In this document: in pieces, positions 11,784 to 36,448 of the stretch
Numbering within the stretch: the stretch's first letter is position 1
Layout of the letters: each line of letters starts with the position of its first letter
From: an uncultured Actinomycetota bacterium
GTDB taxonomy: Bacteria > Actinomycetota > Actinomycetes > Propionibacteriales > Nocardioidaceae
Reading direction: 5' to 3'
Assembly: GCA_963784545.1 (NCBI GenBank)
Contig: CAWARQ010000002.1
Coordinates: forward strand, 571,512-635,511
DNA: 64,000 bases
The notes under the pieces: generated by a model
Told to the model about the DNA's origin: nothing
What the model saw: only the letters and a program-made list of their open reading frames with translations
Databases searched by the model: none
Position numbers and translations under genes: made by a program

Positions 11784-12890
11784 TCAGCCGAGGTCGACGA
11801 TCGCGGCCACGGGGCCGCCGCCGTCGGGGCCCTGGTGGGCCGCGGAGACCGAGACGAAGACCGCCGGGTCGCCGGTGACCGCCGCGGTCACGCCGCCGAC
11901 GCAGGCCTTGATCTGGCGGTGCCAGTGGACGTCGGAGTCGTCGAGCATGGCGTTGCGGCGTCCGCGGACCTGACCGTCCTGGGAGACCTCGCACTTGAGG
12001 AACACGTTGACCAGCCGGCCGTCGAGGTCGGAGGTGTGCGGCCGCTCGGGGAGGTCGAGACCGGCGTCCTTGATGGCGTTCCAGATGCCGTCGGCGTCCA
12101 GGGCGTCCTTCATGACCGAGTGGCCGATCCGGTACCGCCCGCCGACGCCCTTCGCGTTGCCGACGACCACGATCTGCGCCTGGTCGAGCTCGACACCGGA
12201 GGAGCACGAGGCGACGCTCGAGAACAGGTCGCGGTTGTGCATGACGTCCTCGTCCGAGGGCATCTCGATCTCGCCGAGCGCGACCGCGATGCCGAGCCCG
12301 GTGGTGCCGTTGGAGAGGTCCATGGACTCGTGCGTGTGCTCGGTCCACACCGTCTTGCCGCGTGACTTGGCGTCGCGGATGGTGTGGATGGTCAGCAGCG
12401 GCGTCTTGGTCTGGACGTAGTGGACGTCGGCCGGGTCGGTGATGCCGGCCCGCTCCATCGCCACCTTCACGCCGTCGGCGACCTTGCGGATCATCCCGAC
12501 GTACCCGATCTCCTCGGGGAGGATCGCCTCGCTCATGGCGAACCCGGCCGTCAGCCGCATCTCCTCCTTCGACGGGTCGTCGTCGGCCACGTCAGTGGTG
12601 GCGAAGATCGTGGCGTGCGGGCTGATGACGCCGTCGGTGCCGCCGGACCACACGATCGGGACGCCCTTGACCTGCTCGGGGTCGGCGCCCTTGGCGACCA
12701 GCGCCTCGCGGAACGCCCGGTCGGCGATGATCCGCGTGTAGTCGTTGACCCCGCCGTTGCCCTCGGTCTTGCCGATGATCGCGAAGACGCGGTCGGCGGC
12801 GATGACGCCGTCGTCGATCAGCTTCGTGAGCTCCGAGGCGTCGGCGACGGAGTGGATCGGGACCTTGCGGACTTCGATCGCAGAGGGCAT
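11784..12890 (-). CDS. bar: Barbiturase (cyclic amide hydrolase, AtzD/Bar family)
   Basis: [21 protein letters not shown]...[62 protein letters not shown]. Closely follows the Rhodococcus barbiturase sequence as I recall it; 368 aa from ATG 12890. Confidence 0.88.
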
Positions 12891-12912
12891 GGGGTTTCCT
12901 TCCGGTTGTCTT

Positions 12913-13890
12913 CTACTCGGGTACGACGGTGTCGAGGTCGTCACCAGGGACGACGACGGTGCCGACGGTCTCACCGGACGCGAGTCCGGCGACGGCACGG
13001 GCGATGCTGGGCAGGTCGGTGATGACGCCGGGGCGTCCGGTGTGCTCGACGAAGCGGCAGACGGCGTCCACCTTCGGCCCCATCGAGCCGCTGGCGAAGT
13101 GGCCGGCGTCGGCGTGCTCGCGCATCTGGGCCAGCGTGACCCGGCCGACGTCCTCGGCGTCCGGGGTGCCGAACGACAGGACGGCGTGCGGGACGTCAGT
13201 CGCGACGATGAGTGCGTCGGCCTCGACCGAGCGGGCCAGCAGCGCAGCGCCGAGGTCCTTGTCGATGACGGCCTCGACTCCGGCCAGAGAGCCGTCGGGC
13301 TGGCGGGTGACCGGGATGCCGCCGCCGCCGTTCGCGATCACGACGAAGCCGGCCTCGATCAGGGCGAGCACTGCCGGGGCGTCGAGGATCTCCAGCGGCT
13401 CGGGCGAGGCCACGACCCGGCGCCAGCCCTTCTCGCCGCGGTCCTCCCACGTCTCGCCGTGCTGGACCAGCAGCCGCGCCTCGGCCTCGGGCAGGAACCG
13501 CCCGATCGGCTTGGTCGGCTTGGTGAACCCCGCGTCGCTGCGGTCGACGAGCGTGCGCGTCACCACGGTCGCCGTACGCCGCTCGACGCCGCGCTTCGCG
13601 AGGGCGGCCTCGAGGGCGTCCATGAGCACGAACCCGAGGGTCGCCTGCGTCTGCGCCCCACACCAGTCCAGCGGGACCGGCGGGACGACCGCAGCGGCGA
13701 GCTCGTTCTTCACCAGGAGGTTGCCGACCTGGGGGCCGTTGCCGTGGGTGATGACCACGTCGTGCCGGTCGGCCAGCAGCTCGGCGACCGACGCCATCGC
13801 CGTCTCGGCGGCCTCGATCTGGTCCTCCGGACGAGCCCGGCCCTCCGCGTTGGTCATGGCGTTGCCGCCGAGCGCGAGGAGGACCTTCAT
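12913..13890 (-). CDS. arcC: Carbamate kinase
   Basis: [56 protein letters not shown]; ATG 13890 with TAGCGT -10 7 nt upstream. Confidence 0.95.
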
Positions 13891-13927
13891 GAAGGCAACG
13901 CTAATGAGCGCCACCCGACCTCCCATC

Positions 13928-13972
13928 GGCAAGACTTGTCAGGCGCGCAAGAGGGTGACGGCAGGAGTTGCC
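13928..13972 (-). promoter_or_regulatory. Paired GGCA-N5-TGCC boxes (candidate PucR sites) at the arcC-bar promoter
   Basis: GGCAAGACTTGTC at 13928-13940 and GGCAGGAGTTGCC at 13960-13972 (32 bp apart); proximal box 24 nt from the -10. Confidence 0.65.
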
Positions 13973-14000: not shown

Positions 14001-14777
14001 TCAGAACGGGACGGCCACCCGGAGCAGCCCGTCGCCGGTGGCGCGCTGGGACGTGATCCGACAGAACTCGACAGCGTCGAGCCGCAGCTCCTCCGCAGAT
14101 GGATCGCCGAAGCGGCCGCCGGCCGGGCCCTCGAGCACCAGGTCCACCGGTCGGCCGTGCCGTTCCAGCCACTCCCGCGCAACACCGGCGACGACCCAGC
14201 CGTCGTGGTCGGCGGTGAGGAGCGGCTCCGAGCCCAGCGCCCGTGCCACGTCGATCCGGTGCATCCAGGCGTCCCGCGTGAGGATGACGTCCACCAGGTA
14301 GCCGAGGCTCCACCGCTCCTTCGCACCGGGCACCTCCACCGGGAACGTGACCAAGCGCCGCATCGGGCCCGGCGTGTTCCGGCGGCCGCGTGCGGCCGGA
14401 CCCACCATCGAGCCGAGCTCGGCCACCAGCTCCGCGGTGCCGAGAGACGCAGTGCGTTCGACCTGGATCTCGGTCATCACGTCCGTGTCGTTGTCCTCGC
14501 TCCGCCGGGACCGTCGTTTGACCTCGATCTGCTGGCTGGCGAACTCCTTGAGCGAGGCGGCGGCGCGCATGGCGCCGAGCACGTGCCCCGCCATGGTGCG
14601 GACGTCCCACCCCGGGCACTCGGTCGGTGTCTCCCACTGCTCGGGGGTGAGGCCGGCAACCGCGTCCACGAACCGCTGGTAGGCAACCTCGGCCTCGTGC
14701 AGGGCACGCGCGCGGTCGTGGTCGGGTGGCACGAACCGGGTGCCGGGGGTGCGCTGGATCGGGCTGGTGGTGCTCAT
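14001..14777 (-). CDS. Mycothiol-dependent maleylpyruvate isomerase (MDMPI)/DinB-like family protein
   Basis: LTPEQWETPTECPGWDVRTMAGHV and DAWMHRIDV His motifs; 258 aa. Confidence 0.85.
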   Translation of the reverse strand: MSTTSPIQRTPGTRFVPPDHDRARALHEAEVAYQRFVDAVAGLTPEQWETPTECPGWDVRTMAGHVLGAMRAAASLKEFASQQIEVKRRSRRSEDNDTDVMTEIQVERTASLGTAELVAELGSMVGPAARGRRNTPGPMRRLVTFPVEVPGAKERWSLGYLVDVILTRDAWMHRIDVARALGSEPLLTADHDGWVVAGVAREWLERHGRPVDLVLEGPAGGRFGDPSAEELRLDAVEFCRITSQRATGDGLLRVAVPF

Positions 14778-15370
14778 GCGTGCTCCTCGTCGGGCTCGGT
14801 GGTCAGACCGACGTGGTCACAGAACATCGTGACCGCCTCGTCGGCGAGGCTGGACCAGCGATCACCGCTGGGATCGTTGGACATCTGTTGCGCGGCCAGT
14901 CCCGAGATGACCGAGGTCCACAGGTCGTGGTGCCGGGACTCGGTGACGCCGACTCCGGCGAGGGCCTGGTTGGTGAACTCCAAGTTGTCGACGGCCAGGG
15001 CGTAAGACTCCGGCGAGGGCTCGAACCCGGGGACCGCGCGCTGGAACATCAGCAGGTAGCGGGCCGGATCTTCGACGCAGAACTGCAGGAAGGCCCGGGC
15101 TCCCCGCCGCAGTCGAGCCCGGGGTGGACCGGAGTCGTCGAGGCCGCTCAGGACGTGCGCCAGCTGGCGCTGGCCCTGGGCGAACATCAGGTCGTAGATG
15201 CCCTCCTTCGACGCGACGTAGGTGTAGAGGCTGGGCGCACGCATGCCGACCTCGGCGGCCACGTCACGCAGCGAGATCGCGGCCAACCCGCGCTCGCGCG
15301 CGATCGACCATGCGACCTCGAGGATCTGCTGGCGGACGTGGTCCCGTCGGCCTTCGCGTGCGTCTAACAT
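14774..15370 (-). CDS. TetR/AcrR family transcriptional regulator
   Basis: N-terminal HTH ISLRDVAAEVGMRAPSLYTYVASKEG; stop overlaps the MDMPI start. Confidence 0.92.
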   Translation of the reverse strand: MLDAREGRRDHVRQQILEVAWSIARERGLAAISLRDVAAEVGMRAPSLYTYVASKEGIYDLMFAQGQRQLAHVLSGLDDSGPPRARLRRGARAFLQFCVEDPARYLLMFQRAVPGFEPSPESYALAVDNLEFTNQALAGVGVTESRHHDLWTSVISGLAAQQMSNDPSGDRWSSLADEAVTMFCDHVGLTTEPDEEHA

Positions 15371-15406
15371 CGTTAGGATGATCTAACGATGTTAGAGGTT
15401 CGTCAA
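15363..15406 (-). promoter_or_regulatory. TetR promoter with double palindromic operator
   Basis: CTAAC-N3-GTTAG at 15364-15376 and 15383-15395, together forming a perfect 14-bp inverted repeat. Promoter reads TTGACG-N17-GATCAT-N7-ATG. Confidence 0.8.
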
Positions 15407-16078
15407 CCCCCGTGGGCCCCGACCCAGCAGCGCGCGCAAGGGCAGAGTGCCGACGGGCAGGCCGTGCGCGTCGTAGTAGGCGAACATCGCCGACAGCCAG
15501 GGGTGGCTGCGGGGGTCGGGGACCTGGGTGGCGCCGACCCCCGCCTCTGCGGCCAGCTCGGCGACGGTCGCGACCCGGCTGGCGAGCTCGTACGTCGCGC
15601 CGGCGTGCCCGTCCTCGGCCAGCACGACGGTGGCGACCTCGCCGAGGTCGGCCAGGTCGAGGAAGCCGAAGAGGGCGTCGACGGAGTACGGCACCTCGAG
15701 CGGCCGCGACCGGTCGAAGTTCTGCAGGTAGACGCCGGGCTGGAGGATCGTCCAGGCGAGGCCACTGCGCCGCACCAGGTCCTCCGAGGCGGCCTTGCCG
15801 AGGTGGTGCGGCATCTCCGGCACGTACGGCGAGGCCACCGAGTGGTAGACCACCCGATCGACTCCGGCCGCCCGGAGCGCGCCGAGCGCGGCGGCGACGT
15901 AGGTCGGCTCGTCGGGGTGCAGGTTCGGCGCGATGAGGTACGCCGCCTCGCAGCCGCGCAGACCGGCGGCGAGGTCGTCGCGCCGGCCCAGCGGCACCGG
16001 GTCTGTCCCGCGTGCCTCCAGCGCCGAGGACACCGCACGCCCGGTCTTGCCGTGGCCGCCCAGGATCGCGACGCGCAT
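15392..16078 (-). CDS. NmrA-like NAD(P)H-binding protein
   Basis: VAILGGHGKTGR Rossmann motif, TILQPGVYLQN; TGATG-coupled to hydantoinase B. Confidence 0.85.
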   Translation of the reverse strand: MRVAILGGHGKTGRAVSSALEARGTDPVPLGRRDDLAAGLRGCEAAYLIAPNLHPDEPTYVAAALGALRAAGVDRVVYHSVASPYVPEMPHHLGKAASEDLVRRSGLAWTILQPGVYLQNFDRSRPLEVPYSVDALFGFLDLADLGEVATVVLAEDGHAGATYELASRVATVAELAAEAGVGATQVPDPRSHPWLSAMFAYYDAHGLPVGTLPLRALLGRGPRGLTNL

Positions 16079-17994
16079 CAGACCAGGTCGACCTCGGCGT
16101 GGGCGGCACCGTCGGCGAGCGTGGCGTAACCCGGCCCGCGGTCGAACATCGGAGCCTCCGCGCGCGCGGCCGCCAGCTCGCCCCGGCGGGTGGACGTGGC
16201 GTCAAGGTCCACGGCGAGCGAGTCGTCGTCGAGCGAGCCGGTCAGCACGACGCCGTACTGGTCGGAGGCGGCCTCGAGGGAGACCTTGCGCCAGACCACG
16301 TCGCGACACACGAGCGCCGGGTCGCGTTCAAGAGGGTCCCCCCAGCCGCCGCCACCGGTGGTCCGGATCCGGATCAGCTCTCCGGCCTTCACCGGCTCCG
16401 CGTCGGCCAGCGCGTCGACCTCGCGCTCGTGCGGCCCACCCGGGTCGACGGTCACCTGGAACGGAGAGCCCGCGAGGCCGCCCTTGACCCCCCAGCACGC
16501 CAGGATCGACCGGTCGGCGATCGACATGAAGTGGGCGTCCTTGAGCATCCGGATCTGCTTCTCGTAGCCCAGCCCGCCGCGGAACTTGCCCGCCCCACCG
16601 GAGTCGACCGCCAACGACAGCGATTCGACGAGGAACGGGAACCGCGACTCGGTGAACTCGCTCGGCAGGTTCCGCGAGTCCGGGACGACGTGGATGGTGT
16701 CCTCGCCGTCGGCGTAGTAGCGGCCACCGGAGCCGCCGCCGAGCACCTCCCGCATGAGGTAGGGCCGGCCCTCGCGGTCCTCGCCGTACACACCGGTGTA
16801 GCGGATCGTCTCCTGGTCCGCCGGCATCTTGCCGTCGACCGCCTTCGCGACGACACCGGCGAGGACGCCGAGCAGTCGCAGGATCACGAACGTGCGGGCG
16901 TTGGTCGGCGCCGGGAAGACCGGCGTGATCAGCGTCCCGGGCTCCGGGAAGCGCATCTCGATCAGCGGCACGATCCCCTCGTTGACGTCGAGCTCGGCCA
17001 TCCGCTCCGGCGACTCCGCCAGGTTGCGCAGGATCGGTGCCAGCCACTTCTTGAGGAAGACCCCGTCGGAGTAGTCGCCGCAGTGGTTGATCGGCCCCTT
17101 GGCCTGCGGGCCGGTGCCGTCGAAGTCGAGGACCAGCCGCTCACCGTCGGGGTCGTCGGCGGCCGTCCGGGTCAGGGTGATCCGCTGCGTGTGCAGCCGC
17201 GGCTCGTCGACGCCGTCGTGCTCGGCGTAGTCCTCCCAGGTCCAGGTCCCGACCGGGATCACCGACAGGATCTCGCGGCGGTACGTCGTGGTGGTGCGGT
17301 CGAGGATGGCGTCGAAGCAGGACTCCACGACCTCGACGCCGTACCGGTCGAACATCTCCCCCAGCCGGCGCGCGCCCATGAGGCAGGCGCTGCACTCGGC
17401 GTCCAGGTCGGCCGCCAGCGACTCGGGCATCCGGGAGTTGCGGGTCATGATCGCCAGCGCCGACCGGTTGGGGACGCCGGCGTCCCACAGCTTGATCGGC
17501 GGGACCATCAGCCCCTCCTCGAAGACGCTGGTCGCCTGGCTCGGCATGGAGCCGGGGACCGCGCCGCCGATGTCGTCGTGGTGGCCGAACGCCTGGACGA
17601 ACGCGACCACCCTGCCCGCGGAGAGGACAGGGACAGTCACGCAGAGGTCCGGGAGATGGCCGATGCCGCCCTCGGAGCGGTAGACGTCGTTGTGGAAGAA
17701 GACGTCGCCCTCCCTCATCTCCGCCAACGGGAAGTCGCGCGCGACCGGGTGGACGAGAGCGGAGTACGACCGACCGGTCAGCTTGCGCAACAGCCGGTCG
17801 TGGATGCCCGCACGGAAGTCGTGGGCGTCGCGGATCATCGGGCTTCGGCTGGTGCGCGCGATCGCGGTCTCGACCTCCATCTCGACGCTCGCCAGAGTGC
17901 CCTGGACGATCTCGACCAGCACCGGGTCGGCGCCCGCGCCGGCATCGTCGGTGAGGAAGCCGTACGGGAACTGGGTGGGTGCGCGCCTGCTCAT
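16078..17994 (-). CDS. Hydantoinase B/5-oxoprolinase family subunit
   Basis: RTSRSPMIRDAHDF, GGIGHLPD, GHHDDIGGAVPGSM, SIADRS, IRTTGGGGWGDPLERD. Start set to ATG 17994. Confidence 0.92.
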   Translation of the reverse strand: MSRRAPTQFPYGFLTDDAGAGADPVLVEIVQGTLASVEMEVETAIARTSRSPMIRDAHDFRAGIHDRLLRKLTGRSYSALVHPVARDFPLAEMREGDVFFHNDVYRSEGGIGHLPDLCVTVPVLSAGRVVAFVQAFGHHDDIGGAVPGSMPSQATSVFEEGLMVPPIKLWDAGVPNRSALAIMTRNSRMPESLAADLDAECSACLMGARRLGEMFDRYGVEVVESCFDAILDRTTTTYRREILSVIPVGTWTWEDYAEHDGVDEPRLHTQRITLTRTAADDPDGERLVLDFDGTGPQAKGPINHCGDYSDGVFLKKWLAPILRNLAESPERMAELDVNEGIVPLIEMRFPEPGTLITPVFPAPTNARTFVILRLLGVLAGVVAKAVDGKMPADQETIRYTGVYGEDREGRPYLMREVLGGGSGGRYYADGEDTIHVVPDSRNLPSEFTESRFPFLVESLSLAVDSGGAGKFRGGLGYEKQIRMLKDAHFMSIADRSILACWGVKGGLAGSPFQVTVDPGGPHEREVDALADAEPVKAGELIRIRTTGGGGWGDPLERDPALVCRDVVWRKVSLEAASDQYGVVLTGSLDDDSLAVDLDATSTRRGELAAARAEAPMFDRGPGYATLADGAAHAEVDLV

Positions 17995-18148
17995 GAGGCC
18001 ACCTCGCGAGGACACGAGCGAAGCGAGGCCCGGAGGGAGGTGTGCCGAATGGGCGATTCAATCCGGCTCATGAGGCCACCTCGCGAGGACACGAGCGCAG
18101 CGAGGCCCGGAGTGGGGTGTGCCGAATGGGCGATTCAGAACTGCTCAT
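17991..18148 (-). mobile_element. Two tandem 77-bp elements, each encoding a 26-aa mini-ORF, between hydantoinase A and B
   Basis: Units 17991-18067 and 18068-18144 are near-identical. Mini-ORFs are 18068-18148 (MSSSESPIRHTPLRASLRSCPREVAS) and 17991-18071 (MSRIESPIRHTSLRASLRSCPREVAS). ATGA overlaps occur at 18145-18148, 18068-18071 and 17991-17994. Confidence 0.8.
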
Positions 18149-20271
18149 TGCCCTGCCTCCGTGCGGGGGTTTCGAGACGCTCGCTGCGCTCGCTCCTCAA
18201 CCACCGACGACCTCCGGACGATCAGGTTGCGGTAGTCGTCGACGGTCGCGGTGAAGCCGGGGTGGATCGGCACGGTGGACCCGAACTCCTCGACGATCGC
18301 CGGACCGGGGACGACGGACCCAGGCCCCAGGTCGGGGCGCCACAGCAGCGGCGTCTCGACATACCCGTCGGTGGCGTCGAAGCAGACCTGGCGGGTGCCT
18401 CGCTCCGTCGGGTCGGGGGTTGCGCCGCCTGGCTCGGACCTACGGATCTCCGGGCGCTGGATCGGGCCGATGCCGCTGACCCGGAGGTTCACCCACTCGA
18501 CCTGCTGGCTCGGGTCGGTGGCGAAGTCGTAGCCGTAGAGCGCGCGGTGCTCGGTGTGGAAGGTGTCCGCGACCGCGGTCAGCGCCGCTGCGTCCAGGTC
18601 GCCGGCCGGCACCGGCACCCGGACCTCGAAGGCCTGGCCGAAGTAGCGAAGGTCGGCGGTGCGCTCGAAGACGTGCGCATCACCGGGGAATCCCTCCTTG
18701 TCCAGGGCGATCCGGGCCTGGTCGGTGAGCTCGGCGTACACGGCGTCGACCTCTCCCGCGTCCAGCGACTCCGCGAGCGCGACGTGGGTCTGGACGTAGT
18801 CGTTCTTCACGTCGACCGTGAGCAGCCCGAAGGCGGACACGTTGCCGGGGTCCGGTGGCACGAGGACCGTCGGGATGCCGAGGATGTCCATCAGCCGGCA
18901 CAGCAACAACGAACCGGAGCCGCCGAAGGTGGTGAGCGTGAAGTCCCGGACGTCGAGGCCGCGCTTGACGGTGACCTGCCGCAGGGCGTTGGCCTGGTTC
19001 CACGCCGAGATTTCCAGGACGCCGGCCGCGGCCGCCTCGGGGCTCAGCCCGAGCTGCGCGGCGAGAGCCGTCACGCCGCTCTTCGCCGCCTCGGCGTCGA
19101 GAGGGATCTCGCCCCCGAGCAGGTGCGGCGGGATGCGGCCGAGGAAGAGGTGCGCGTCGGTGATGGTGACGTCGCTCCCGCCCTTGGCGTAGCAGAGCGG
19201 ACCTGGGTCCGCGCCCGCGCTCTGCGGCCCGACCTTGAGCGTGCCCTCGGGGCTCAGCCACGCGATCGAGCCGCCGCCCGCGCCGACCGTGACGACGTCG
19301 ATCATCGGGATCTTGCTGGGGAACGCGCCGACGCTCCCCTCGGTCGTGAGCGTCGGGTTGCCGTCGATCACCACGCTGACGTCGGTCGAGGTTCCTCCGC
19401 CGTCGCTGGTCAGCACCCGGTCGAAGCCGGCGACCTTCGCGATCAGCGCGGCACCCAGGGCTCCGGCCGCCGGTCCCGACAGCACCGTGGTGATCGGCTG
19501 GTGCACGACCTCGTCGGCGGAGAGGACGCCGCCGTTGGACTTCATCACGTAGAACGGCAGCGAGCGCTGGGCGTTGTCGGCCAGCCGGCTCTTGATGTTG
19601 TTGACGTACGCCGAGAGCCGAGGCTTGACCGCGGCATCGACCAGCGTCGTCATCGCGCGCTCGTACTCGCGGTACTCGCGCAGCACCTCGCTGGAGATCG
19701 AGACGACCGCGTCCGGGTGCTCCTCGCTGAGGATGACCCGCATCCGCTCCTCGTGCGCGGGGTTGGCGTAGGCGTGCAGGAAGCAGACGCCGAGGGTGTT
19801 GATCCCCTGGTCCTTGAACCAGCGCGCAGCCGTGCGCGCCAACTCCTCGTCGAACGGCCGGACCTCGGCGCCGGTGAAGTCCAGGCGGCCGCCGACCTCC
19901 TTGACCAGGTGTCGCGGGACGATCCGGTCGGGCTTGACCCAGAAGTAGGAGTTGCCGTACCCGTCGGGCACCGACTGGCGAGCGATCTCCAGCATCGCGC
20001 CGTAGCCCTCGGTGGTGAGGTAGCCGAGCGCTTCGACCTTGCCCTCGAGCAGCTGGTTGGTGGCCACGGTCGTGCCGTGGGAGACGGCGGTGACGGCGTC
20101 GTACTCGGCGCCGATGAGGTCCAGCACCTTGTCGATCCCGGCCAGGAACCCGTCGGCGGGGTTGCTCGGGGTGGACGGCGTCTTGGTCGTGACGACCCGG
20201 CCGGAGTCCTCCTCGAAGGCGACGACGTCGGTGAACGTGCCCCCGGTGTCGATCCCGATCCTGATCCGCAT
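18145..20271 (-). CDS. Hydantoinase A/5-oxoprolinase family ATP-binding subunit
   Basis: IGIDTGGTFTD, HGTTVATN, SGPAAG, DGGGTSTDV, GAGGGSIA, GPQSAGADPGP; 708 aa. Confidence 0.93.
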   Translation of the reverse strand: MRIRIGIDTGGTFTDVVAFEEDSGRVVTTKTPSTPSNPADGFLAGIDKVLDLIGAEYDAVTAVSHGTTVATNQLLEGKVEALGYLTTEGYGAMLEIARQSVPDGYGNSYFWVKPDRIVPRHLVKEVGGRLDFTGAEVRPFDEELARTAARWFKDQGINTLGVCFLHAYANPAHEERMRVILSEEHPDAVVSISSEVLREYREYERAMTTLVDAAVKPRLSAYVNNIKSRLADNAQRSLPFYVMKSNGGVLSADEVVHQPITTVLSGPAAGALGAALIAKVAGFDRVLTSDGGGTSTDVSVVIDGNPTLTTEGSVGAFPSKIPMIDVVTVGAGGGSIAWLSPEGTLKVGPQSAGADPGPLCYAKGGSDVTITDAHLFLGRIPPHLLGGEIPLDAEAAKSGVTALAAQLGLSPEAAAAGVLEISAWNQANALRQVTVKRGLDVRDFTLTTFGGSGSLLLCRLMDILGIPTVLVPPDPGNVSAFGLLTVDVKNDYVQTHVALAESLDAGEVDAVYAELTDQARIALDKEGFPGDAHVFERTADLRYFGQAFEVRVPVPAGDLDAAALTAVADTFHTEHRALYGYDFATDPSQQVEWVNLRVSGIGPIQRPEIRRSEPGGATPDPTERGTRQVCFDATDGYVETPLLWRPDLGPGSVVPGPAIVEEFGSTVPIHPGFTATVDDYRNLIVRRSSVVEERAQRASRNPRTEAGQ

Positions 20272-20278: not shown

Positions 20279-20354
20279 ATTGTCCCGGCCAGCCGACGCC
20301 CCCGGCTAAGGCATCATCTGCCGACGGATGGGCGATCCGTTGTCATCTCCTGCC
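20279..20354 (-). promoter_or_regulatory. Hydantoinase operon promoter with paired GGCA-N5-TGCC boxes
   Basis: GGCATCATCTGCC at 20310-20322 and GTCATCTCCTGCC at 20342-20354 (32 bp apart). GACAAT -10 (20279-20284) is 25 nt from the proximal box and 7 nt from the ATG. Confidence 0.65.
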
Positions 20355-20983: not shown

Positions 20984-21032
20984 GAGAACAGGATATTGTA
21001 TGAGTGAGTCATATATCGAGGAGCTGATGTGC

Positions 21033-28954: not shown

Positions 28955-29798
28955 TCCGCTCCCCTCTCCGGGACATCTCCTGGGCGCGCGCCAGCACGCG
29001 CTCGGTCAGCACGCGCACCAGGTGGGCGCGGTAGTCGGCGGTGGCGTGGATGTCGTCGACGGGTTCGAGCACGGCCAGGGCCGCAGACGCCGGGTCGTCG
29101 TCGCCGGTCACGTCCACCACCGTGGGGACGTCGCTGACCGAGAGGTAGCCGAGCCGCGTGCGCTCGGGCGTCACGTGCGCTGCGACGCCGACGAGGGCGT
29201 AGTCGCCGTGTCGCCGGGCGATCTCCTCGAAGGCGACGCCGCTGCCGGCCGCCAGCGCCGGGACGTACGCCGACACCGCGAGCTCGTCGGCCGCGAGGGT
29301 CGACTCGAGCGGGCCGGCGTACAGCTCCGCGGCCGGGATCGTCCGGGAGCCGCGGACCGAGGTCACGTCCACCGAGCCGCCCAGCAGCGAGAGCACCATC
29401 GGCATCTCGGCCGCAGCGTCGGCGTGGACGATCGAGCCGACCGTGGTCCCGCGGTTGCGGATCGTCGGGTGCGCGACGTGCGAGAGCGCCATCCGCAGCA
29501 GGGGCTGCACCTCGGCCGCGCCGTCGTGGGCCAGCAGGTCCGCGTGCCGCACGAGGGCGCCGAACCGGACGCCGGCCCCAGCCCCCGACGGGGTCACCTC
29601 GACGGCGTCGAGGCCAGGCACCCGGTTGACGTCGACGACCACGTCCGGCGCCGCCAGTCGCATCGAGAGCAGCGGGACCAGGCTCTGGCCGCCGGCCAGC
29701 ACCTTCGCGCTGCCGCCCCCCTCAGCACTGCCGGCCAGGGTCTCCAACGCCTCCTGGAGAGTGCCTGGCCGGCGGTAGCTGAAGGGTGCTGGCTTCAC
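28947..29798 (-). CDS. Molybdenum hydroxylase FAD subunit (CoxM-like)
   Basis: KPAPFSYRRP, VLAGGQSLVPLLSMRLA, IRNRGTTVGS, ARRHGDYA. Confidence 0.93.
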   Translation of the reverse strand: MKPAPFSYRRPGTLQEALETLAGSAEGGGSAKVLAGGQSLVPLLSMRLAAPDVVVDVNRVPGLDAVEVTPSGAGAGVRFGALVRHADLLAHDGAAEVQPLLRMALSHVAHPTIRNRGTTVGSIVHADAAAEMPMVLSLLGGSVDVTSVRGSRTIPAAELYAGPLESTLAADELAVSAYVPALAAGSGVAFEEIARRHGDYALVGVAAHVTPERTRLGYLSVSDVPTVVDVTGDDDPASAALAVLEPVDDIHATADYRAHLVRVLTERVLARAQEMSRRGERSV

Positions 29799-29813: not shown

Positions 29814-31313
29814 CTAGTCCTGCCGGTGGGTTCCCGGGGTCCCCGAGGTCCCCGTCGTGCCTGTGGTCCCCGTGGTACCGGTGGTGCCCATCGTGCCCGG
29901 GGTCTGGGAATCGGCGCCCTCGGGGCCGACGGTCATCGCCCCGGCCTCGAGGTCCGTGCCCGCGCTGCGCGCGACCATCCGGGCGACGTGGTAGCCCACG
30001 ACGATGATCAAGGTACCCATCGCGATGCCGCCCAGCGGGAAGTCGCTCGTGATGTTGAAGAAGGAGTTGTCGCTCAGGCCGATGCCCATGGTCAGGCCCG
30101 CGGCGACCGGCACCAGGTTGACCGGGTTGGCGAAGTTGACGCCGTTCTCCACCCAGATCTTGGCGCCGAGCAGGCCGATCATCCCGTAGAGCACCAGAGT
30201 GATGCCGCCGAGCACGCCACTCGGCGTGGTGGCCACCAGCGCCCCGAACTTCGGGATGAAGCCGAAGAAGATCGCGACGATCGCCGCGACGAAGTACGCC
30301 GCCGTCGAGTAGACCCGAGTGGCCGCCATGACGCCGATGTTCTCGGCGTACGTCGTGGTGGGCGAGCCACCGACGAACGAGGCCAGCGTCGTGCCGACAC
30401 CGTCAGCGGCGACCGCCTTGCCCATGACCGGGTCGAGGTTGCGACCGGTCATGCCCGAGACCGCCTTGACGTGACCCATGTTCTCCGCCACCAGCGCGAT
30501 CACGGCCGGCAGGGCGAGCAGGGTGAAGGTGATCGAGAGGCTCGGCAGGTGCCAGCCGACCAGGTCGTAGTGCGTGCCACCGGAGAAGGGGCTCTGGTTG
30601 CCCACCAGCCCGTCAGCGGTGTGCGGTGGGAAGCCGAACCAGTCGGCGCTCTTGACGTTGTCCCAGTTCACCCGGTCACCGTCCACGCCGCCGACGCCGA
30701 TCGCGTCGAACAGGAGGGACAGCACGAAGCCGAAGATCAGGCCGAGGAAGATCGCGATGCGGCCGAAGAAGCCGCGCAGCCCGACGGCCATGAGGATGAC
30801 CGCGAACATCGTGATGAGGGCGACCCAGCGGTCGGCCGGCATGTAGATGCCGGTGGCGACCCGGCAGAGGTTGAAGCCGATCAGCATGACGACGGCGCCG
30901 GTGACCACCGGGGGCAGCAGTCCGTTGACGAAGCCGGGGCCGGCGAAGTGGATCGCGACACCGACCAGCGCCAGCACGATGCCGGAGACCATGATCGCGC
31001 CGGTGACGTCGGAGGGGCCGCCGCCCTGGGCATAGATCGCGGCCGCGCCGCCGACGAAGGACGCCGACGTGCCGAGGTAGCTCGGCACCGTGCCCTTGAC
31101 GATGAGCAGGAAGCAGATCGTCGCGATACCGCTCATCATGATCGCCAGGTTGGCGTTCAGGCCCATCACGATCGGGAACACGAAGGTCGCACCGAACATC
31201 GCGACGACGTGCTGGGCGCCGAGCCCGACGGTCTTGCCCCACGCCAGTCTCTCGTCCGGGGCCACCGCCTGACCAGGTGCGGGATCGACTTCCCGCCAGG
31301 TGAACATCGACAT
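29814..31313 (-). CDS. NCS2 family nucleobase permease (UraA/PbuX-like)
   Basis: LGAQHVVAMFGAT, PSYLGTSASF, PPVVTG, ENMGH, TTYAENIG; GGAGGA SD before ATG 31313; 499 aa. Confidence 0.92.
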   Translation of the reverse strand: MSMFTWREVDPAPGQAVAPDERLAWGKTVGLGAQHVVAMFGATFVFPIVMGLNANLAIMMSGIATICFLLIVKGTVPSYLGTSASFVGGAAAIYAQGGGPSDVTGAIMVSGIVLALVGVAIHFAGPGFVNGLLPPVVTGAVVMLIGFNLCRVATGIYMPADRWVALITMFAVILMAVGLRGFFGRIAIFLGLIFGFVLSLLFDAIGVGGVDGDRVNWDNVKSADWFGFPPHTADGLVGNQSPFSGGTHYDLVGWHLPSLSITFTLLALPAVIALVAENMGHVKAVSGMTGRNLDPVMGKAVAADGVGTTLASFVGGSPTTTYAENIGVMAATRVYSTAAYFVAAIVAIFFGFIPKFGALVATTPSGVLGGITLVLYGMIGLLGAKIWVENGVNFANPVNLVPVAAGLTMGIGLSDNSFFNITSDFPLGGIAMGTLIIVVGYHVARMVARSAGTDLEAGAMTVGPEGADSQTPGTMGTTGTTGTTGTTGTSGTPGTHRQD

Positions 31314-31340: not shown

Positions 31341-31424
31341 GCGCCACAAGTTAGTGGCGCCCATCACACACCCTCGACGGCGAGAAATGCCGAAGGAACG
31401 CCGTCGGCACTGGCAGAGGTTGCG
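31341..31424 (-). promoter_or_regulatory. Permease-coxMSLG operon promoter with paired GGCA-N5-TGCC-like boxes
   Basis: GGCGAGAAATGCC at 31379-31391 and GGCAGAGGTTGCG at 31412-31424 (33 bp apart). TAACTT -10 (31348-31353) is 25 nt from the proximal box. Confidence 0.6.
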
Positions 31425-31471: not shown

Positions 31472-32740
31472 CTAGCCGCCGATCTCGAGCACCCGGAGGG
31501 CGACCGCGACGTCGAGTCGCAGGTCCGGGTCGGTGGAGACCGGACCGAGCAGCCGCTCGAGCTTGCCGAGGCGGTAGCGCATCGTGTTGTAGTGGAAGAA
31601 CTGCAGCCGCGCCGCCTCGGCGACGTTGAAATTGGTGTCCAGCAGCCGCTGCAGCGTTTCCCGCAGGCTCGCCGCCTCCTCGGTGGCTTCGGCCAGCGGC
31701 CCGAGCACGTCGTGGGTGAACGACTCCAGCTCGGCCCGCTCCGGCACCAGGGCGATGAGCCGATGGACACCGAGCTGGTCGAAGTGGGTGGTGGACCCCG
31801 GGCCGCGGATCCGCCGGCCGGTGCTCACGGCGCGCTCGGCCTGCGCGAAGGCGTCGGGGAGGTCGGCCACGGACGACGCGACCCGGCTCACCCCGACGCT
31901 GAAGCTCCGCCGGCCGCCGCCCTTGTCGCCGGTGACGGCGCGGACGGCGCGGGTCACCACCTGCGCGCCCGGCGGGCCCGATGCCCCCGTCTCGTCGACC
32001 GGCAGCAAGGTGACGACCTCGTTGCCGAAGTCGACCGAGGGGCTCGCCGGCGCCTGCTGCTCGGTGACCATCCGCCAGGCCGCCGCGAAGCGCTCCTGCC
32101 ACTGTCGCCCCCGCGCCTGGGCGGGCGGCTCGCTCTTGCCGGCGGGATCGAGCTCGGCGACGACCACGACCAGCGGCCGGCGCAGGTCCCAGCCGAAGCC
32201 GGCCGCATGCTCGGCGACGTACGCCGGATCGCCGGCCCGGCGCAGGAACACGTCGCGCAGGAAGTCCCCGCGGTACTTGTTCTCGACCGCGTTGACCGCG
32301 TCCTGCCGGGTGATGACGAGGGCGCCGACGATGGCGGCCCGCTCCAGGGCCTGGACGTCCTCCTCGGTGATCTCGCCGTCCTCGCGGTAGGCGACCAGGC
32401 GGGCGAGGTCGGTGCCGCCGGCGACCACGCGGAGGGTCCGCACCCAGCCGGTCCCGGACGGGCCGGGGACCTGGACGCCCTGGCCGCCGAGCCGCTCGAC
32501 CCGGAGTCGCCCGGAGGACTCGATCACCTCGGCCTCCGTCAGCTGGGCCCGCTGCGCGTCGCTCAGGTGGGCGCCCCGCTCCCTGCCGTCGGTGGAGGTG
32601 AAGGCGGCGCCCAGGTCGAGGACCTCCGCCACCTCGCGCGCGATCACTCCCAGGTCACCTCCCTCGAGGACGATGCCGGTGAGCCCGATGTGCAGCGCGT
32701 CGCTCCGGGCGAGCCCGGCAGCGTGTCCACGCGCAGCCAT
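31472..32740 (-). CDS. PucR/CdaR family transcriptional regulator
   Basis: C-terminal HTH LRETLQRLLDTNFNVAEAARLQFFHYNTMRYRLGKLERLLG; GGDEF-like core; AGGAGG SD before ATG 32740. Confidence 0.9.
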   Translation of the reverse strand: MAARGHAAGLARSDALHIGLTGIVLEGGDLGVIAREVAEVLDLGAAFTSTDGRERGAHLSDAQRAQLTEAEVIESSGRLRVERLGGQGVQVPGPSGTGWVRTLRVVAGGTDLARLVAYREDGEITEEDVQALERAAIVGALVITRQDAVNAVENKYRGDFLRDVFLRRAGDPAYVAEHAAGFGWDLRRPLVVVVAELDPAGKSEPPAQARGRQWQERFAAAWRMVTEQQAPASPSVDFGNEVVTLLPVDETGASGPPGAQVVTRAVRAVTGDKGGGRRSFSVGVSRVASSVADLPDAFAQAERAVSTGRRIRGPGSTTHFDQLGVHRLIALVPERAELESFTHDVLGPLAEATEEAASLRETLQRLLDTNFNVAEAARLQFFHYNTMRYRLGKLERLLGPVSTDPDLRLDVAVALRVLEIGG

Positions 32741-32838: not shown

Positions 32839-33654
32839 ATGATCCCCGTCGCCGCACCTCCACGGGTCCGGGACCGGCTGCGCTCTGCCGAGGGACCGGT
32901 CCGGGTCCTCCACACCGGCGCCGAGGCGTGGTACGTCGAGGTCGACGGACACGCCGTCGGGCTGCTGTCCCGCGACGCCGCCCGCGTCCCCTGCGGGCTG
33001 CGCAGCCACCTGCCAGGGCGCTCGCTCCTCGAGGGCGACGACCCGGGCAAAACTGGGTACCTTGAGGGTGGGACCTTGTGGCTGGGCGGACGGGCCTTCG
33101 GGCTCACCAGATCCGTGGATGTTCGCGCACCACGGATCACCGTCACTCACGGGTTCCGCACGGCGAGCTCGGCCACCGTCACGGCCACCCCCCCGGCCCA
33201 GGTGGCCGAGTTCGTCCGGGGGTTCCTGAGGCGCGCCGACGAGCTGGACGGGCTCGACGACCACCGGATGGCCGAGCTGGCTCCCGCGCTGGTCGGTGCC
33301 GGCCCTGGTCTCACGCCGCTGGGCGACGACCTGCTGTGCGGATGGCTGGCCGCGCACCGGGCGGCGGGTCGCGCGACCCCCGCCACCGATGCCGTCCTCG
33401 ACCTGCTGGTCGGGTCAGGGCGCCGCCTGGAGGGTCCCGCCACCACCCTGCTCTCGGCGACGCTGCTGGACTGCGCCCGCCACGGGGAGGTCCTGCCCGA
33501 GCTCGGCTCGTGGCTCGGTGCTCTGGGCACCCCAGAGGAGGGCGCACGGCTGGCCCGCCTCCAGACGATCGGCTCCACGTCGGGAGCCGGCCTCGCCGAA
33601 GGAGCCCGCCTGGCGCTCCTGTCCCTGTCCGCACCCGCGAAAGTGGCCCCATGA
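32839..33654 (+). CDS. DUF2877 protein (YlbF/AllH-like oxamate carbamoyltransferase subunit)
   Basis: LVGAGPGLTPLGDDLLCG and IGSTSG family motifs; adjacent to FdrA and DUF1116. Confidence 0.82.
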   Translation: MIPVAAPPRVRDRLRSAEGPVRVLHTGAEAWYVEVDGHAVGLLSRDAARVPCGLRSHLPGRSLLEGDDPGKTGYLEGGTLWLGGRAFGLTRSVDVRAPRITVTHGFRTASSATVTATPPAQVAEFVRGFLRRADELDGLDDHRMAELAPALVGAGPGLTPLGDDLLCGWLAAHRAAGRATPATDAVLDLLVGSGRRLEGPATTLLSATLLDCARHGEVLPELGSWLGALGTPEEGARLARLQTIGSTSGAGLAEGARLALLSLSAPAKVAP

Positions 33655-35057
33655 CCGATTCAGTGATCCTCCGCTCGGGCGCCTACGCCGACTCGGTGAC
33701 CCTCCTGCAGGTCAGCCGCACGGTGCAGGGCGCGCCCGGGGTGGTGACCGCCCAGGTCGCCATGGCCACCCCGCTCAACGTCGAGGTGCTCACCGGCATG
33801 GGCTTCGCCGTCCCCGCAGAGGCGACCACCAACGACCTGGTGATCGCCCTGCGCCTGGAGTCCCCGGACGGACTGGACGCCGCACTCGCGGCCGTCGACG
33901 AGGCGCTGACCTCCCGTCGTACGTCGTCGGGCGAGTCGACGCACGCGCCGCACCGCACCACCGGGGCGGCCCTCCGCGAGCGGCCCGGCCTGGCGCTGGT
34001 GTCGGTGCCGGGCGCGAGCGCCGCGGTCGAGGCGATGGACGCCCTGGAGTCGGGGTGCGACGTGATGGTCTTCAGCGACAACGTGCCGGTCGACCAGGAG
34101 GTCGCGCTCAAGCGGTACGCCGCCGAACGGTCCCTGCTGGTCATGGGGCCCGACTGCGGCACCGCCGTCGTGGGCGGCGTCGGGCTCGGGTTCGCCAACA
34201 CCACCGACCCCGGCCCGGTCGGCCTCGTCGCCGCCTCGGGCACCGGGTGCCAACAGCTGTTGGCGCTCCTCGACCACGCCGGGGTGGGCGTCACGGACGC
34301 CCTCGGGGTGGGCGGGCGCGACCTGTCGGCGGAGGTCGGCGGCCTCTCCACGCGCGAGGGCATGCGCCGGCTCGACGCCGACCCCTCCGTCGAGCTGATC
34401 GTCGTCGTGTCCAAACCACCCGCTCCCGAGGTCGCCGCCAGCATCGGCTCGTACGCCGACAGCCTCACCACCCCGGTCCAGCTGGCCCTGCTCGGGGCCG
34501 GCCAGCCCGACCTCACGGCAGCCGCGGAGGCGATCCTCAGCAGCCTCGAGCGGGACGTGCCCGACTGGCCGGTCGACGGGACGGCCTCACGCGTCGCGCG
34601 CGGCGAGCGGCTCGAGGGACTCTTCGTCGGCGGCACCCTGTGCAGCGAGTCGCGGCTGATCGCGGAGCCGGTGCTCGGGTCCGACCGGTGCCGGTTCGTC
34701 GACTTCGGCGACGACGAGTACACCCAGGGCCGCGCTCACCCGATGATCGACCCGGGGCTACGCCTGGAGGAGATCGCGCGGATCGGAGCCGATCCGGCCA
34801 CCGGCGTCGTCCTCCTCGACGTCGTCCTGGGCCACGGTGCCGAGCCCGACCCGGCCGCCGCCCTGGCGCCCGTCCTGTCCGGGCTCGAGGTGCCCGTCGT
34901 CGCCAGCGTCGTCGGCACCCGCCTCGACCCGCAGGACCGCGCCCGCCAGGTGGCCGCGCTGGTCGAGGCCGGGGTCGAGGTCCACCTGTCCAACGCCCGC
35001 GCCACCCGGCGCGCCCTCGAGCTGCTCGCCCCCGAGCCGGACGGAGCCCCCCGATGA
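33651..35057 (+). CDS. fdrA: FdrA (AllF-like) acyl-CoA synthetase-fold protein
   Basis: GAYADSVTLLQVS, ALVSVPG, MVFSDNV, MGPDCGT, ASGTG, VGGRDLS, GGTLCSE, DFGDDEYTQGRAHPMIDP; ATGA overlaps at both ends. Confidence 0.9.
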   Translation: MTDSVILRSGAYADSVTLLQVSRTVQGAPGVVTAQVAMATPLNVEVLTGMGFAVPAEATTNDLVIALRLESPDGLDAALAAVDEALTSRRTSSGESTHAPHRTTGAALRERPGLALVSVPGASAAVEAMDALESGCDVMVFSDNVPVDQEVALKRYAAERSLLVMGPDCGTAVVGGVGLGFANTTDPGPVGLVAASGTGCQQLLALLDHAGVGVTDALGVGGRDLSAEVGGLSTREGMRRLDADPSVELIVVVSKPPAPEVAASIGSYADSLTTPVQLALLGAGQPDLTAAAEAILSSLERDVPDWPVDGTASRVARGERLEGLFVGGTLCSESRLIAEPVLGSDRCRFVDFGDDEYTQGRAHPMIDPGLRLEEIARIGADPATGVVLLDVVLGHGAEPDPAAALAPVLSGLEVPVVASVVGTRLDPQDRARQVAALVEAGVEVHLSNARATRRALELLAPEPDGAPR

Positions 35058-36448
35058 CCGCACCCGACCACGTCGTCAGCACCGGAGCCGACCTCTTCGC
35101 CGACGCCCTCGACGCCCAGGCCGTCGGAGTCGACCGCGTGGAGTGGCGCCCGCCGATGCCCGGCACCGAGTCCGACCTCTCCACCGTCGCCCTGGATCCG
35201 AGACGGCCCGCCGCCAACCAGCAGGCGCTCGAGGCCATGCTCGGTGTCACCGCGCGTCTGGTCGACGTCGCACCGGCCTCCGAGCTCCTCGGCCTCGAGC
35301 GGGGACAGTTCCTGCACGCGGGCCCGCCGATCGCCTGGGAGCGCGCCAGCGGCCCGCTGCGCGGCGCCCTCATGGGGGCTGCGGCGCTGGAGGGTCTGGT
35401 CGAGGACCCGGAGGACGCCGAGGCGCTGTTCGCCCATGGCGACTCGGTCTCGCTCGAGCCCTGCCACCACCGGAGCGCGGTCGGCCCGATGGCCGGGGTC
35501 GTCAGCCCGTCGATGTGGATGTGGGTGCTCGAGGACGGTGCCGACGGGGACCGCCGGACGTACTGCACCTTGAACGAGGGCCTCGGCAAGGTGCTGCGCT
35601 ACGGCGCCTACGGCCCCGAGGTGCTCGACCGGCTGCGCTGGATGAACGACGTCCTCGGGCCGCTGCTCCGGGCCGCCGTACGCCGCGTGGGTGCGGACTC
35701 CGGTCCGGTCGACGTCACCGGGATCCTCACGCAGATGCTGCAGATGGGCGACGAGGCGCACAACCGCAACCGGGCCGGGACGCTCATGCTGCTGCGCGAC
35801 CTCGGCCCGGCGATGGTGACCTCCGGCGACCCGGTCGACGTGGCGGAGGCGTTGCGCTTCGTCGGCGGCAACGACCACTTCTTCCTCAACCTCGCGATGC
35901 CGGCCTGCAAGCTGGCGCTCGACGCCGGCCGCGACATCCCCGGCTCCACGATGGTCGTCGCGATGGCCCGCAACGGCACCGACTTCGGCATCCAGGTCTC
36001 CGGCACCGGCGACGAGTGGTTCACCGGGCCGGCCCAGCTGGCCGACGGGCTGTTCCTCGGCGACTACGGCCCCGAAGACGCCAACCCGGACATCGGGGAC
36101 TCGGCGATCACCGAGACGGCCGGGATCGGGGGGTTCGCGATGGCGACCGCTCCCGCGATCGTGCGGTTCGTGGGTGGCTCGGTGCCGGACGCGCTGGCCA
36201 CCACCCGCCGCATGCACGAGATCACGCTCGGGGAGAACCCGCGCTGGGCGGTCCCGGTCCTGGAGTTCCAGGGCACCCCGACCGGCATCGACGTCGCCAA
36301 GGTCTGCCGGACCGGCATCCTCCCCCAGATCAACACCGGCATGGCCGGCCGCGTCGCCGGGGTCGGTCAGGTCGGCGCGGGGCTCGTCACTCCGCCGGCC
36401 GAGATCTTCCCCGCGGCGCTCCGCCGGCTGGCCGAGCTCGCCGGCTGA
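35054..36448 (+). CDS. DUF1116 protein (YlbE/AllG-like)
   Basis: FLHAGPPIAW, PCHHRSAVGPMAG, LNEGLGKVLRYGA, MGDEAHNRN, MARNG, DIGDSAITETAGIGG, INTGMAG. Confidence 0.9.
   Translation: MTAPDHVVSTGADLFADALDAQAVGVDRVEWRPPMPGTESDLSTVALDPRRPAANQQALEAMLGVTARLVDVAPASELLGLERGQFLHAGPPIAWERASGPLRGALMGAAALEGLVEDPEDAEALFAHGDSVSLEPCHHRSAVGPMAGVVSPSMWMWVLEDGADGDRRTYCTLNEGLGKVLRYGAYGPEVLDRLRWMNDVLGPLLRAAVRRVGADSGPVDVTGILTQMLQMGDEAHNRNRAGTLMLLRDLGPAMVTSGDPVDVAEALRFVGGNDHFFLNLAMPACKLALDAGRDIPGSTMVVAMARNGTDFGIQVSGTGDEWFTGPAQLADGLFLGDYGPEDANPDIGDSAITETAGIGGFAMATAPAIVRFVGGSVPDALATTRRMHEITLGENPRWAVPVLEFQGTPTGIDVAKVCRTGILPQINTGMAGRVAGVGQVGAGLVTPPAEIFPAALRRLAELAG

Follow-up and report, generated by a model that had tools for sequence, protein, structure and literature searches.

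Organization of a putative pyrimidine catabolic island

The stretch of DNA analysed here, referred to below as the window, comprises 64,000 nucleotides (G000:C2:571512-635511, on contig CAWARQ010000002.1) of the 3.1-Mb, 99% complete genome of an uncultured member of the Nocardioidaceae (GenBank assembly GCA_963784545.1), a soil-type actinomycete that its nearest relatives mark as Nocardioides-like, and it contains a putative pyrimidine catabolic island with genes for a barbiturase (bar), a carbamate kinase (arcC), a molybdenum hydroxylase and an AllFGH-like trio. In the following, G labels denote the genomes of the comparison set, in which G000 is the host, and L labels denote extracted loci. 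Because the window has a G+C content of 72%, genes were called by third-position G+C and then identified by family searches with Pfam and NCBIfam models. Four catabolic units were found between 10.6 and 36.4 kb, namely arcC-bar, hydA-hydB-nmrA-like, a seven-gene permease-hydroxylase operon and pucR/allHFG. These searches recovered, each in its place, all genes named in a preliminary description of this DNA, whose inventory had left out hydA, hydB, the NmrA-like gene and a family III CoA-transferase gene. The 24.7-kb span from bar to the trio is no single operon, as it is broken by unrelated genes that are not conserved in relatives, namely MDMPI and TetR genes (14001-15370) and genes for a MarR regulator, a peptidoglycan-binding protein and an acyltransferase (20432-23403).

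Barbiturase and its adjacent carbamate kinase

The bar gene (11784-12890, minus strand) encodes a full-length member of the barbiturase family (TIGR02714, 583 bits; PF09663, 473 bits, profile positions 1-358). Its start is the ATG at 12890, which is preceded by the ribosome-binding site GGAAGGAA, and the open reading frame (ORF) start at 12998 is not the real one. Read from this ATG, the protein aligns end to end with the Rhodococcus erythropolis barbiturase of the crystal structure PDB 5hwe at 84% identity (309/367). It is closer to this characterised barbiturase than to cyanuric acid hydrolases, with 666-672 bits against barbiturase (666 against 5hwe) and about 314 bits against the best cyanuric acid hydrolase. 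Across a sample of 401 Actinomycetes genomes, identities of barbiturase-family matches were bimodal, falling either at 61-93% or at 35-42%. Based on the end-to-end identity, the score of the cyanuric acid hydrolases and this clean split, the barbiturase assignment is sound, and the enzyme is predicted to open barbiturate to ureidomalonate. The NCBIfam equivalog model for AtzD (cyanuric acid amidohydrolase) also passes its own cut-off on this protein (467 versus 360 bits), and the automatic label "cyanuric acid amidohydrolase" would probably be wrong here.

The pairing of barbiturase with carbamate kinase noted in the preliminary description is borne out: arcC (12913-13914, minus strand) lies 22 nt upstream of bar on the same strand. 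Its product was identified as a carbamate kinase of the ArcC/AllK type by NF009007 (306 bits, above the curated cut-off of 266), and TIGR00746 gave 328 bits, below its cut-off of 358. This is the only carbamate kinase of the host genome, and the ArcC proteins adjoining bar form one clade (support 96/95). Convergent with bar, just outside the span covered before, a family III CoA-transferase gene was found at 10605-11765 on the plus strand (PF02515, 387 bits). Its best NCBIfam models are dicarboxylate CoA-transferases, all below cut-off, and its product is a candidate malonate (or malonamate) CoA-transferase, which would pass the C3 remainder of the ring on to malonyl-CoA.

The AllHFG trio

The DUF2877-FdrA-DUF1116 trio reported earlier was found intact at 32839-36448 on the plus strand, divergent from pucR. 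It consists of allH (32839-33654), encoding an AllH-like DUF2877 subunit (PF11392, 68 bits); allF (33651-35057), encoding an AllF/FdrA-like subunit (NF004760, 370 bits, below the cut-off of 433; PF00549); and allG (35054-36448), encoding an AllG-like DUF1116 subunit (PF06545, 306 bits). The three genes are translationally coupled through ATGA overlaps, and the three families of AllFGH systems thus stand side by side in the window. The E. coli arrangement, with the trio and a carbamate kinase in one operon, is not found in the window, where the kinase gene is 20 kb away beside bar; such an operon was seen only in a variant cluster of genome G151 and in modules that lack bar. Nor was the allB/C/E/D context for converting allantoin to oxalurate found, as the genome has no Ldh_2/AllD homologue and the neighbours are of pyrimidine type. 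In the AllG phylogeny, the proteins linked to bar form a separate clade (support 97/95) apart from those of E. coli and of biuret contexts, and the window AllG is placed inside it. On the basis of these comparisons, AllH-AllF-AllG is a candidate ureidomalonate phosphorylase (malonamate carbamoyltransferase).

A second, divergent AllG/DUF1116 paralogue (245 bits) is encoded about 24-31 kb upstream of the window (G000:C2:540683-547570; L105 10683-17570). It lies in a same-strand run with genes for a glutamine-synthetase-like ligase, an AMP-binding enzyme, a metallo-beta-lactamase-fold hydrolase and an NCS1 nucleobase/allantoin-type permease, and it groups in the AllG tree with an AllG-only gene of another genome. 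With no AllF or AllH gene beside it and unrelated genes around it, this paralogue was not counted as part of the island, and its run looks like a different system.

Conservation of the island across Actinomycetes

The neighbourhood of bar was compared among 80 loci carrying barbiturase relatives at 78-95% identity, each with flanks of ±10 kb. At least 15 named genera are represented, including Nocardioides, Marmoricola, Aeromicrobium, Intrasporangium, Janibacter, Terrabacter, Knoellia, Phycicoccus, Humibacillus, Tetrasphaera, Ornithinibacter, Agilicoccus, Pseudonocardia and Jatrophihabitans, together with a Streptosporangiaceae metagenome-assembled genome and a Propionibacteriaceae isolate. 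The arcC gene is directly upstream of bar in 76 of these loci, and the remaining four end at that point. Other neighbours are hydB (55 loci), hydA (46) and, between hydB and arcC, the NmrA-like gene (43), and in 42 loci a CoA-transferase gene stands no more than 10 kb from bar, in many cases immediately upstream of arcC. None of the 80 flanks contains AllFGH genes; in all five genomes examined whole, a single AllG copy was located 12-39 kb from bar. Extended regions around bar showed the same island throughout. For example, Nocardioides sp. R1-1 carries a single uninterrupted 20-kb cluster with the order bar-arcC-nmrA-hydBA-amidase-coxGLSM-NCS2-pucR, divergent from allHFG.

Co-occurrence was assessed in the 401 genomes mentioned above, which were drawn evenly from the class Actinomycetes. 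The association of bar with the trio that the preliminary description had proposed as a check proved strongly positive: bar orthologues were detected in 90 genomes and AllG in 100, and 85 of the 90 bar-positive genomes have AllG. Likewise, CoxL orthologues (at least 68% identity), which encode the large subunit of the molybdenum hydroxylase, were detected in 89 genomes, 85 of them bar-positive, and 82 genomes contain bar, AllG and CoxL together. Within the host genus, all three are present in 10 of 17 genomes and all three absent from the other 7, and bar and AllG are thus gained and lost together there. A tally of coordinates put bar and AllG on the same contig in 43 genomes, at no more than 50 kb in 30 and no more than 100 kb in 38, the usual distance being 6-90 kb. 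The six sampled genomes with homologues of the cyanuric acid hydrolase type have no AllG.

The most compact arrangement was found in G151, where a minimal cluster flanked by unrelated lipid and polyketide genes comprises coxL-coxS-coxM, bar, a 101-aa ORF and an NCS2 permease gene, with allH-allF-allG, a 140-aa ORF and arcC on the opposite strand. No HydAB, amidase or PucR gene was found in this cluster. The AllG of G151 belongs to the bar-linked clade (97/95), whereas its carbamate kinase is outside the clade of bar-adjacent kinases (96/95), indicating that one kinase was replaced by another without loss of the association. Neither of the two small ORFs of this cluster, which encode 140 aa between allG and arcC (L098 5431-5853) and 101 aa after bar (L097 19212-19517), had a family match or a homologue in the other compared clusters.

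The permease-hydroxylase operon

The operon that the preliminary description had described as an NCS2 permease gene heading molybdenum hydroxylase, amidase and RidA genes is indeed a tightly packed seven-gene unit, running on the minus strand from 31313 to 23568 with intergenic gaps of -8 to +15 nt. Its order is NCS2 permease, coxM, coxS, coxL, coxG, amidase and RidA. The first gene (29814-31313) encodes an NCS2 nucleobase:cation symporter (PF00860, 225 bits), for which RutG and uracil permease are the top NCBIfam models, neither reaching its cut-off. The hydroxylase is encoded by coxM (28947-29798; FAD-binding medium subunit, PF00941 and PF03450), coxS (28475-28954; [2Fe-2S] small subunit, PF01799 and PF00111), coxL (26100-28478; large molybdenum-cofactor subunit, NF040766, 1504 bits, "group 5" CO-dehydrogenase-like) and coxG (25480-26103; CoxG-like SRPBCC subunit, 54% identical to a Pfam COXG (PF06240) protein of G293).

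In form I CO dehydrogenases, CoxL carries the active-site loop AYxCSFR with a copper-binding cysteine. The corresponding loop of the window CoxL reads VTPYRGAGRPQG (PYRGAGR) and contains no CSFR, and the true form I model TIGR02416 gave 459 bits against a cut-off of 991. Standard annotation would name it "aerobic carbon-monoxide dehydrogenase large subunit". Because the operon is led by a pyrimidine-type permease gene and CoxL orthologues are present in 85 of the 90 bar-positive genomes, CoxMSLG is a candidate for uracil/thymine dehydrogenase (EC 1.17.99.4), which has so far been a sequence orphan. Knowledge of the oxidative pyrimidine pathway goes back to the 1950s, but barbiturase is its only enzyme with an assigned gene; we know of no genes ever assigned to uracil/thymine dehydrogenase or to ureidomalonase.

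The gene after coxG (23994-25475) encodes an amidase-signature amidase (PF01425, 363 bits). Its relatives in the PDB are generic, with GatA and urethanases at about 200 bits. A specific kinship to malonamidase E2 or AtzE was considered and discarded, as both matches are weak (86 and 169 bits, respectively) and leave the substrate undecided. The protein is a candidate malonamidase that would convert malonamate to malonate and NH3, and it may instead be a ureidomalonase. The slot after coxG is occupied by an amidase-signature enzyme in Nocardioides and by a nitrilase-superfamily (CN_hydrolase) gene in Janibacter, Humibacillus, a Propionibacteriaceae genome and the Rhodococcus-like genome G293 (L100 2120-3022; also G004, G002/L068, L025, L066 and L076). 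Refilling of this slot by non-orthologous replacement suggests that some amide hydrolysis is needed and that the enzyme is interchangeable. The amidase, which the preliminary description had made a component of the pathway, is not a core one, being replaced by a nitrilase-superfamily hydrolase in other lineages while G151 has neither, and for the same reason the sequence cannot decide between malonamidase and ureidomalonase. The RidA-family protein encoded by the last gene (23568-23984; PF01042) is lineage-specific, with an orthologue only in G005 among the compared clusters.

Proposed pathway

Taken together, the island likely encodes an oxidative pyrimidine pathway in which the last nitrogen-releasing step is phosphorolytic. 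Uracil, and probably thymine too, would be taken up by the NCS2 permease, and the CoxMSLG-type molybdenum hydroxylase would oxidize uracil at C6 to barbiturate. Barbiturase, a strong assignment, would open the ring to ureidomalonate. By analogy with E. coli, AllH-AllF-AllG would then move the terminal carbamoyl group of ureidomalonate to phosphate, generating malonamate and carbamoyl phosphate, and the bar-adjacent carbamate kinase would use carbamoyl phosphate and ADP to produce ATP, NH3 and CO2. An exchangeable amide hydrolase, of the amidase-signature type here and of the nitrilase superfamily elsewhere, would convert malonamate to malonate and release the second nitrogen as NH3, and the family III CoA-transferase would convert malonate to malonyl-CoA. 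The gene identities, synteny, co-occurrence and clade structure were observed directly, and the substrate of the hydroxylase and those of all steps after barbiturase are inferred from them.

The phosphorolytic split of ureidomalonate put forward in the preliminary description is well supported by comparative genomics, through the co-occurrence of bar and AllG, the G151 cluster, the AllG clade and the lack of urease and AllD. In the host genome, no urease alpha subunit was found, and no urea carboxylase scored above cut-off. The 99% complete genome also contains no Ldh_2/AllD-type ureidoglycolate dehydrogenase, a possible source of oxalurate. The earlier observation that allantoinase, ureidoglycolate dehydrogenase and urease are missing from the window therefore extends to the whole genome for the AllD-type enzyme and urease alpha, while an allantoinase is encoded elsewhere in the genome. 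Among the 85 genomes with both bar and AllG, 63 had no match to urease alpha. In most carriers, both ring nitrogens would be wasted if the pathway ended in urea.

Several observations weigh against a phosphorolytic ending. The allHFG genes of the window are about 20 kb from arcC-bar in a separate transcription unit, and their co-location may also reflect a shared regulon or a mobile island. Fisher's test for the association of bar and AllG gave p of about 1e-64 with genomes treated as independent, and because the genomes are related such counts greatly overstate independence. Two genomes with fragmented assemblies, G351 and G365, have arcC-bar without detectable AllG or CoxL. The host has an allantoinase gene, more than 200 kb from the island, and arginine deiminase is encoded on another contig, so that the kinase could also serve arginine catabolism. 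Characterisation of the E. coli AllFGH enzyme is limited to the reverse reaction, in which its Km for oxamate is 37 mM. Finally, R. erythropolis is reported to have a ureidomalonase that hydrolyzes ureidomalonate to urea and malonate (Soong et al. 2001, as cited in PMC3758960), and the full island is present in the Rhodococcus-like genome G293.

Alternative explanations

One alternative is a hydrolytic route, in which the hydrolase encoded after coxG is the ureidomalonase, producing urea and malonate, and AllHFG and the kinase act elsewhere or salvage a side product. Its biochemistry is established, as far as the citation of Soong et al. (2001) in PMC3758960 goes, the island is the same in the Rhodococcus-like genome, and the hydrolase slot is kept across lineages through non-orthologous replacement. 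G374, a 100% complete genome, shows that bar can stand without AllG: it has kept NCS2-coxMSLG and bar and has a urease, in one copy on the same contig, with no AllG anywhere in the genome and no arcC beside bar; no recognisable ureidomalonase candidate was found in its bar neighbourhood. Against this, both ring nitrogens would be lost as urea in a host without urease alpha or urea carboxylase, as in the 63 of 85 carriers without urease alpha, and in the minimal cluster of G151 allHFG-arcC is present without an amidase. The route also leaves unexplained why the only carbamate kinase gene lies 22 nt from bar, with arcC next to bar on its upstream side in 76 of the 80 loci, and why 85 of the 90 bar-positive genomes have AllG too. 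We consider a hydrolytic ending rather unlikely; it may coexist with the phosphorolytic one.

Another explanation is that the region is a general nucleobase-nitrogen island, in which AllHFG and the kinase act on oxalurate from purines and allantoin, or on an acylurea of the biuret/allophanate type, and merely share a PucR-controlled neighbourhood with bar. Regulators of the PucR type are known in purine catabolism, oxalurate is acted on by the E. coli enzyme (PMC11326118), an allantoinase is encoded in the genome, and bar-less allHFG-arcC modules stand beside isochorismatase-family (BiuH-like) and allophanate-hydrolase genes, as they do in nitrifiers (PMC12625717). This explanation is improbable when set against the lack of an Ldh_2/AllD homologue to make oxalurate in a 99% complete genome, the distance of more than 200 kb to the allantoinase gene and the separation of bar-linked AllG from the biuret-context and E. 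coli proteins; moreover, the G151 cluster has no purine or biuret gene, and AllG is absent from all six genomes with homologues of the cyanuric acid hydrolase type. That the hydroxylase, HydAB and barbiturase degrade another heterocycle, for instance a substituted barbiturate, a ring of the hydantoin type or a pyrimidine of plant or xenobiotic origin, with AllHFG splitting the resulting acylurea, would fit the CO-dehydrogenase-like group as the only family label of the hydroxylase, the resemblance of HydAB to ATP-dependent lactamases with no role in the textbook pathway and the permease scores below the cut-offs of the uracil and RutG models, but is very improbable given a barbiturase 84% identical to an enzyme characterised on barbiturate, a minimal cluster that does without HydAB and a permease whose closest models are pyrimidine permeases.

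Comparison with known systems

The phosphorolytic pathway proposed here has its closest counterpart in E. coli, where the AllF-AllG-AllH oxamic transcarbamylase with the carbamate kinase AllK is an established carbamoyl-phosphate-forming system (Kim & Kim 2022, 2024; PMC9843812, PMC11326118). The E. coli AllFGH converts oxalurate and phosphate to oxamate and carbamoyl phosphate (PMC11326118; with AllK, PMC9843812). Both systems combine the FdrA, DUF1116 and DUF2877 families with a carbamate kinase, and the chemistry proposed for the island, phosphorolysis of an N-carbamoyl amide (acylurea) to carbamoyl phosphate followed by ATP formation, matches that of E. coli, as does the logic of recovering nitrogen without urease. 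In contrast, identities to the E. coli proteins are 38% for AllF, 48% for AllG and 41% for the kinase, and AllH had no BLASTP match at E 1e-5. The gene order is H-F-G here and F-G-H in E. coli, and unlike in allFGHK, the kinase gene is attached to bar rather than to the trio, with G151 as the exception. Genes for barbiturase, a molybdenum hydroxylase and a permease take the place of allB/C/D/E as neighbours, and the proposed substrate, ureidomalonate, is one methylene longer than oxalurate. Moreover, the hosts are aerobic actinomycetes, whereas the E. coli operon is enterobacterial and anaerobically induced.

The oxidative pyrimidine pathway of R. erythropolis shares with the island its first two steps and an orthologous barbiturase (Soong et al. 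2001, 2002, as cited in PMC3758960). In that account it ends in urea and malonate, whereas the conserved partners of bar here are a carbamoyltransferase-type trio and a carbamate kinase in a host without urease. Modules of the allFGHK type also occur next to biuret/triuret genes in nitrifiers (PMC12625717). Similarly, allH-allF-allG-arcC modules were observed beside an isochorismatase-family (biuret-hydrolase-like) gene in bar-less Actinomycetes (L107 8538-13095 and L108 6033-15136), with an additional allophanate-hydrolase-type gene and a PucR regulator in L108. In these modules, an AllHFG-type trio and a carbamate kinase, sometimes with PucR, appear to have been recruited to another acylurea-type compound; they differ from the island in their isochorismatase/BiuH-like and allophanate hydrolase partners and in their AllG proteins, which belong to other clades at about 51% identity to the window AllG. 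As a family, AllFGH may represent a general module for acylurea phosphorolysis that different ring-breakdown pathways have recruited. The cyanuric acid hydrolase pathway (AtzD/TrzD followed by biuret and allophanate hydrolases) opens its ring with an amidohydrolase of the same fold as barbiturase but, unlike it, the island has neither biuret nor allophanate hydrolase.

The preliminary description knew of no report of the proposed route, and our full-text literature search, in which subscription journals were thinly covered, likewise yielded no paper in which barbiturase or ureidomalonate is connected with AllFGH or carbamate kinase. Known enzyme families would be combined here into an undescribed pathway ending, with a probably new substrate specificity. 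The island supplies gene candidates for the uracil/thymine dehydrogenase step and for the fate of ureidomalonate. If AllHFG-like phosphorolysis takes place, it would yield ATP and free ammonia instead of urea, which would explain pyrimidine nitrogen use by many urease-free carriers, and would give a transcarbamylase family that was first identified in 2024 its second class of substrates. Annotation pipelines would label parts of the island "CO dehydrogenase", "cyanuric acid amidohydrolase" and "acyl-CoA synthetase FdrA"; since the island occurs in about 22% of the sampled Actinomycetes genomes, correcting these labels touches many genomes.

A more far-reaching view is a complete and self-contained route from uracil/thymine to malonyl-CoA/methylmalonyl-CoA by which aerobic actinomycetes would gain one ATP per ring through substrate-level phosphorylation. 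In it, CoxMSLG may supply the missing sequence of the uracil/thymine dehydrogenase, the AllHFG proteins of the bar-linked clade may be a new "malonamate carbamoyltransferase", AllFGH as a whole may be a general class of acylurea phosphorylases that were enlisted independently for oxalurate, for biuret-type compounds and for ureidomalonate, and HydAB-NmrA may be an ATP-driven opener for a ring beyond the reach of barbiturase, e.g., 5-methylbarbiturate. We regard this combination as unlikely.

Regulator and operator-like boxes

The PucR regulator named earlier was located at 31472-32740 on the minus strand (PF13556, PF17853), divergent from allH. PucR is beside NCS2 and allHFG in all seven other genomes that have a PucR gene and whose junction was examined (G001-G005, G276 and G293), and it probably controls the units of the island. 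Paired GGCA-N5-TGCC-like boxes, candidate operators, were found upstream of arcC (13928-13972, 32 nt apart), upstream of hydA (20310-20354, 32 nt apart; the same pair in G001, G003 and G005) and upstream of the NCS2 permease gene (31379-31424, 33 nt apart; a similar pair in G003). The single box is not enriched in the window (3 seen versus 1.9 expected), and what recurs is the pairing and the promoter positions. Upstream of allH, no box pair was found, only a single GGCAAGAC half-match, which is a further point against the proposed pathway. The boxes were accordingly rejected as a link of allHFG to the regulon, the single box being at chance level, and the motif is no sign of co-regulation of the trio.

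HydAB-NmrA and flanking genes

The unit between the two groups of interrupting genes consists of hydA (18145-20271; hydantoinase A-family subunit, PF01968, PF05378 and PF19278), hydB (16078-17994; hydantoinase B/oxoprolinase-family subunit, PF02538, 447 bits) and a gene for an NmrA-like NAD(P)-binding protein (15392-16078; PF13460 and PF05368) that is conserved after hydB, all on the minus strand. Both subunit families of hydantoinases, oxoprolinases and caprolactamases are thus present and adjacent, and HydA and HydB probably form an ATP-dependent cyclic-amide hydrolase; the nearest NCBIfam models, caprolactamase alpha and beta, score far below cut-off (506 and 176 bits versus 1000). HydAB-NmrA stands outside the proposed pathway, and HydAB is missing from the G151 minimal cluster. 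As a guess, it could use ATP to open a second ring, for example thymine-derived 5-methylbarbiturate. Between the two hyd genes there is a 150-nt gap (17995-18144), in contrast to the tight spacing of all other junctions of the island.

At 4091-10575, on the downstream side of bar, two large ORFs were suspected to encode a urea carboxylase, which was ruled out, as they encode housekeeping helicase-nucleases of the AdnA/AdnB type (adnAB); synteny on this side of bar is therefore only positional. At a distance of about 8 kb from bar, a gene of the PNP_UDP_1 nucleoside phosphorylase family (about 2700-3421, plus strand) converges with a NudC-type NUDIX gene (1748 to about 2700, minus strand), and this nucleoside phosphorylase could feed free bases to the island.

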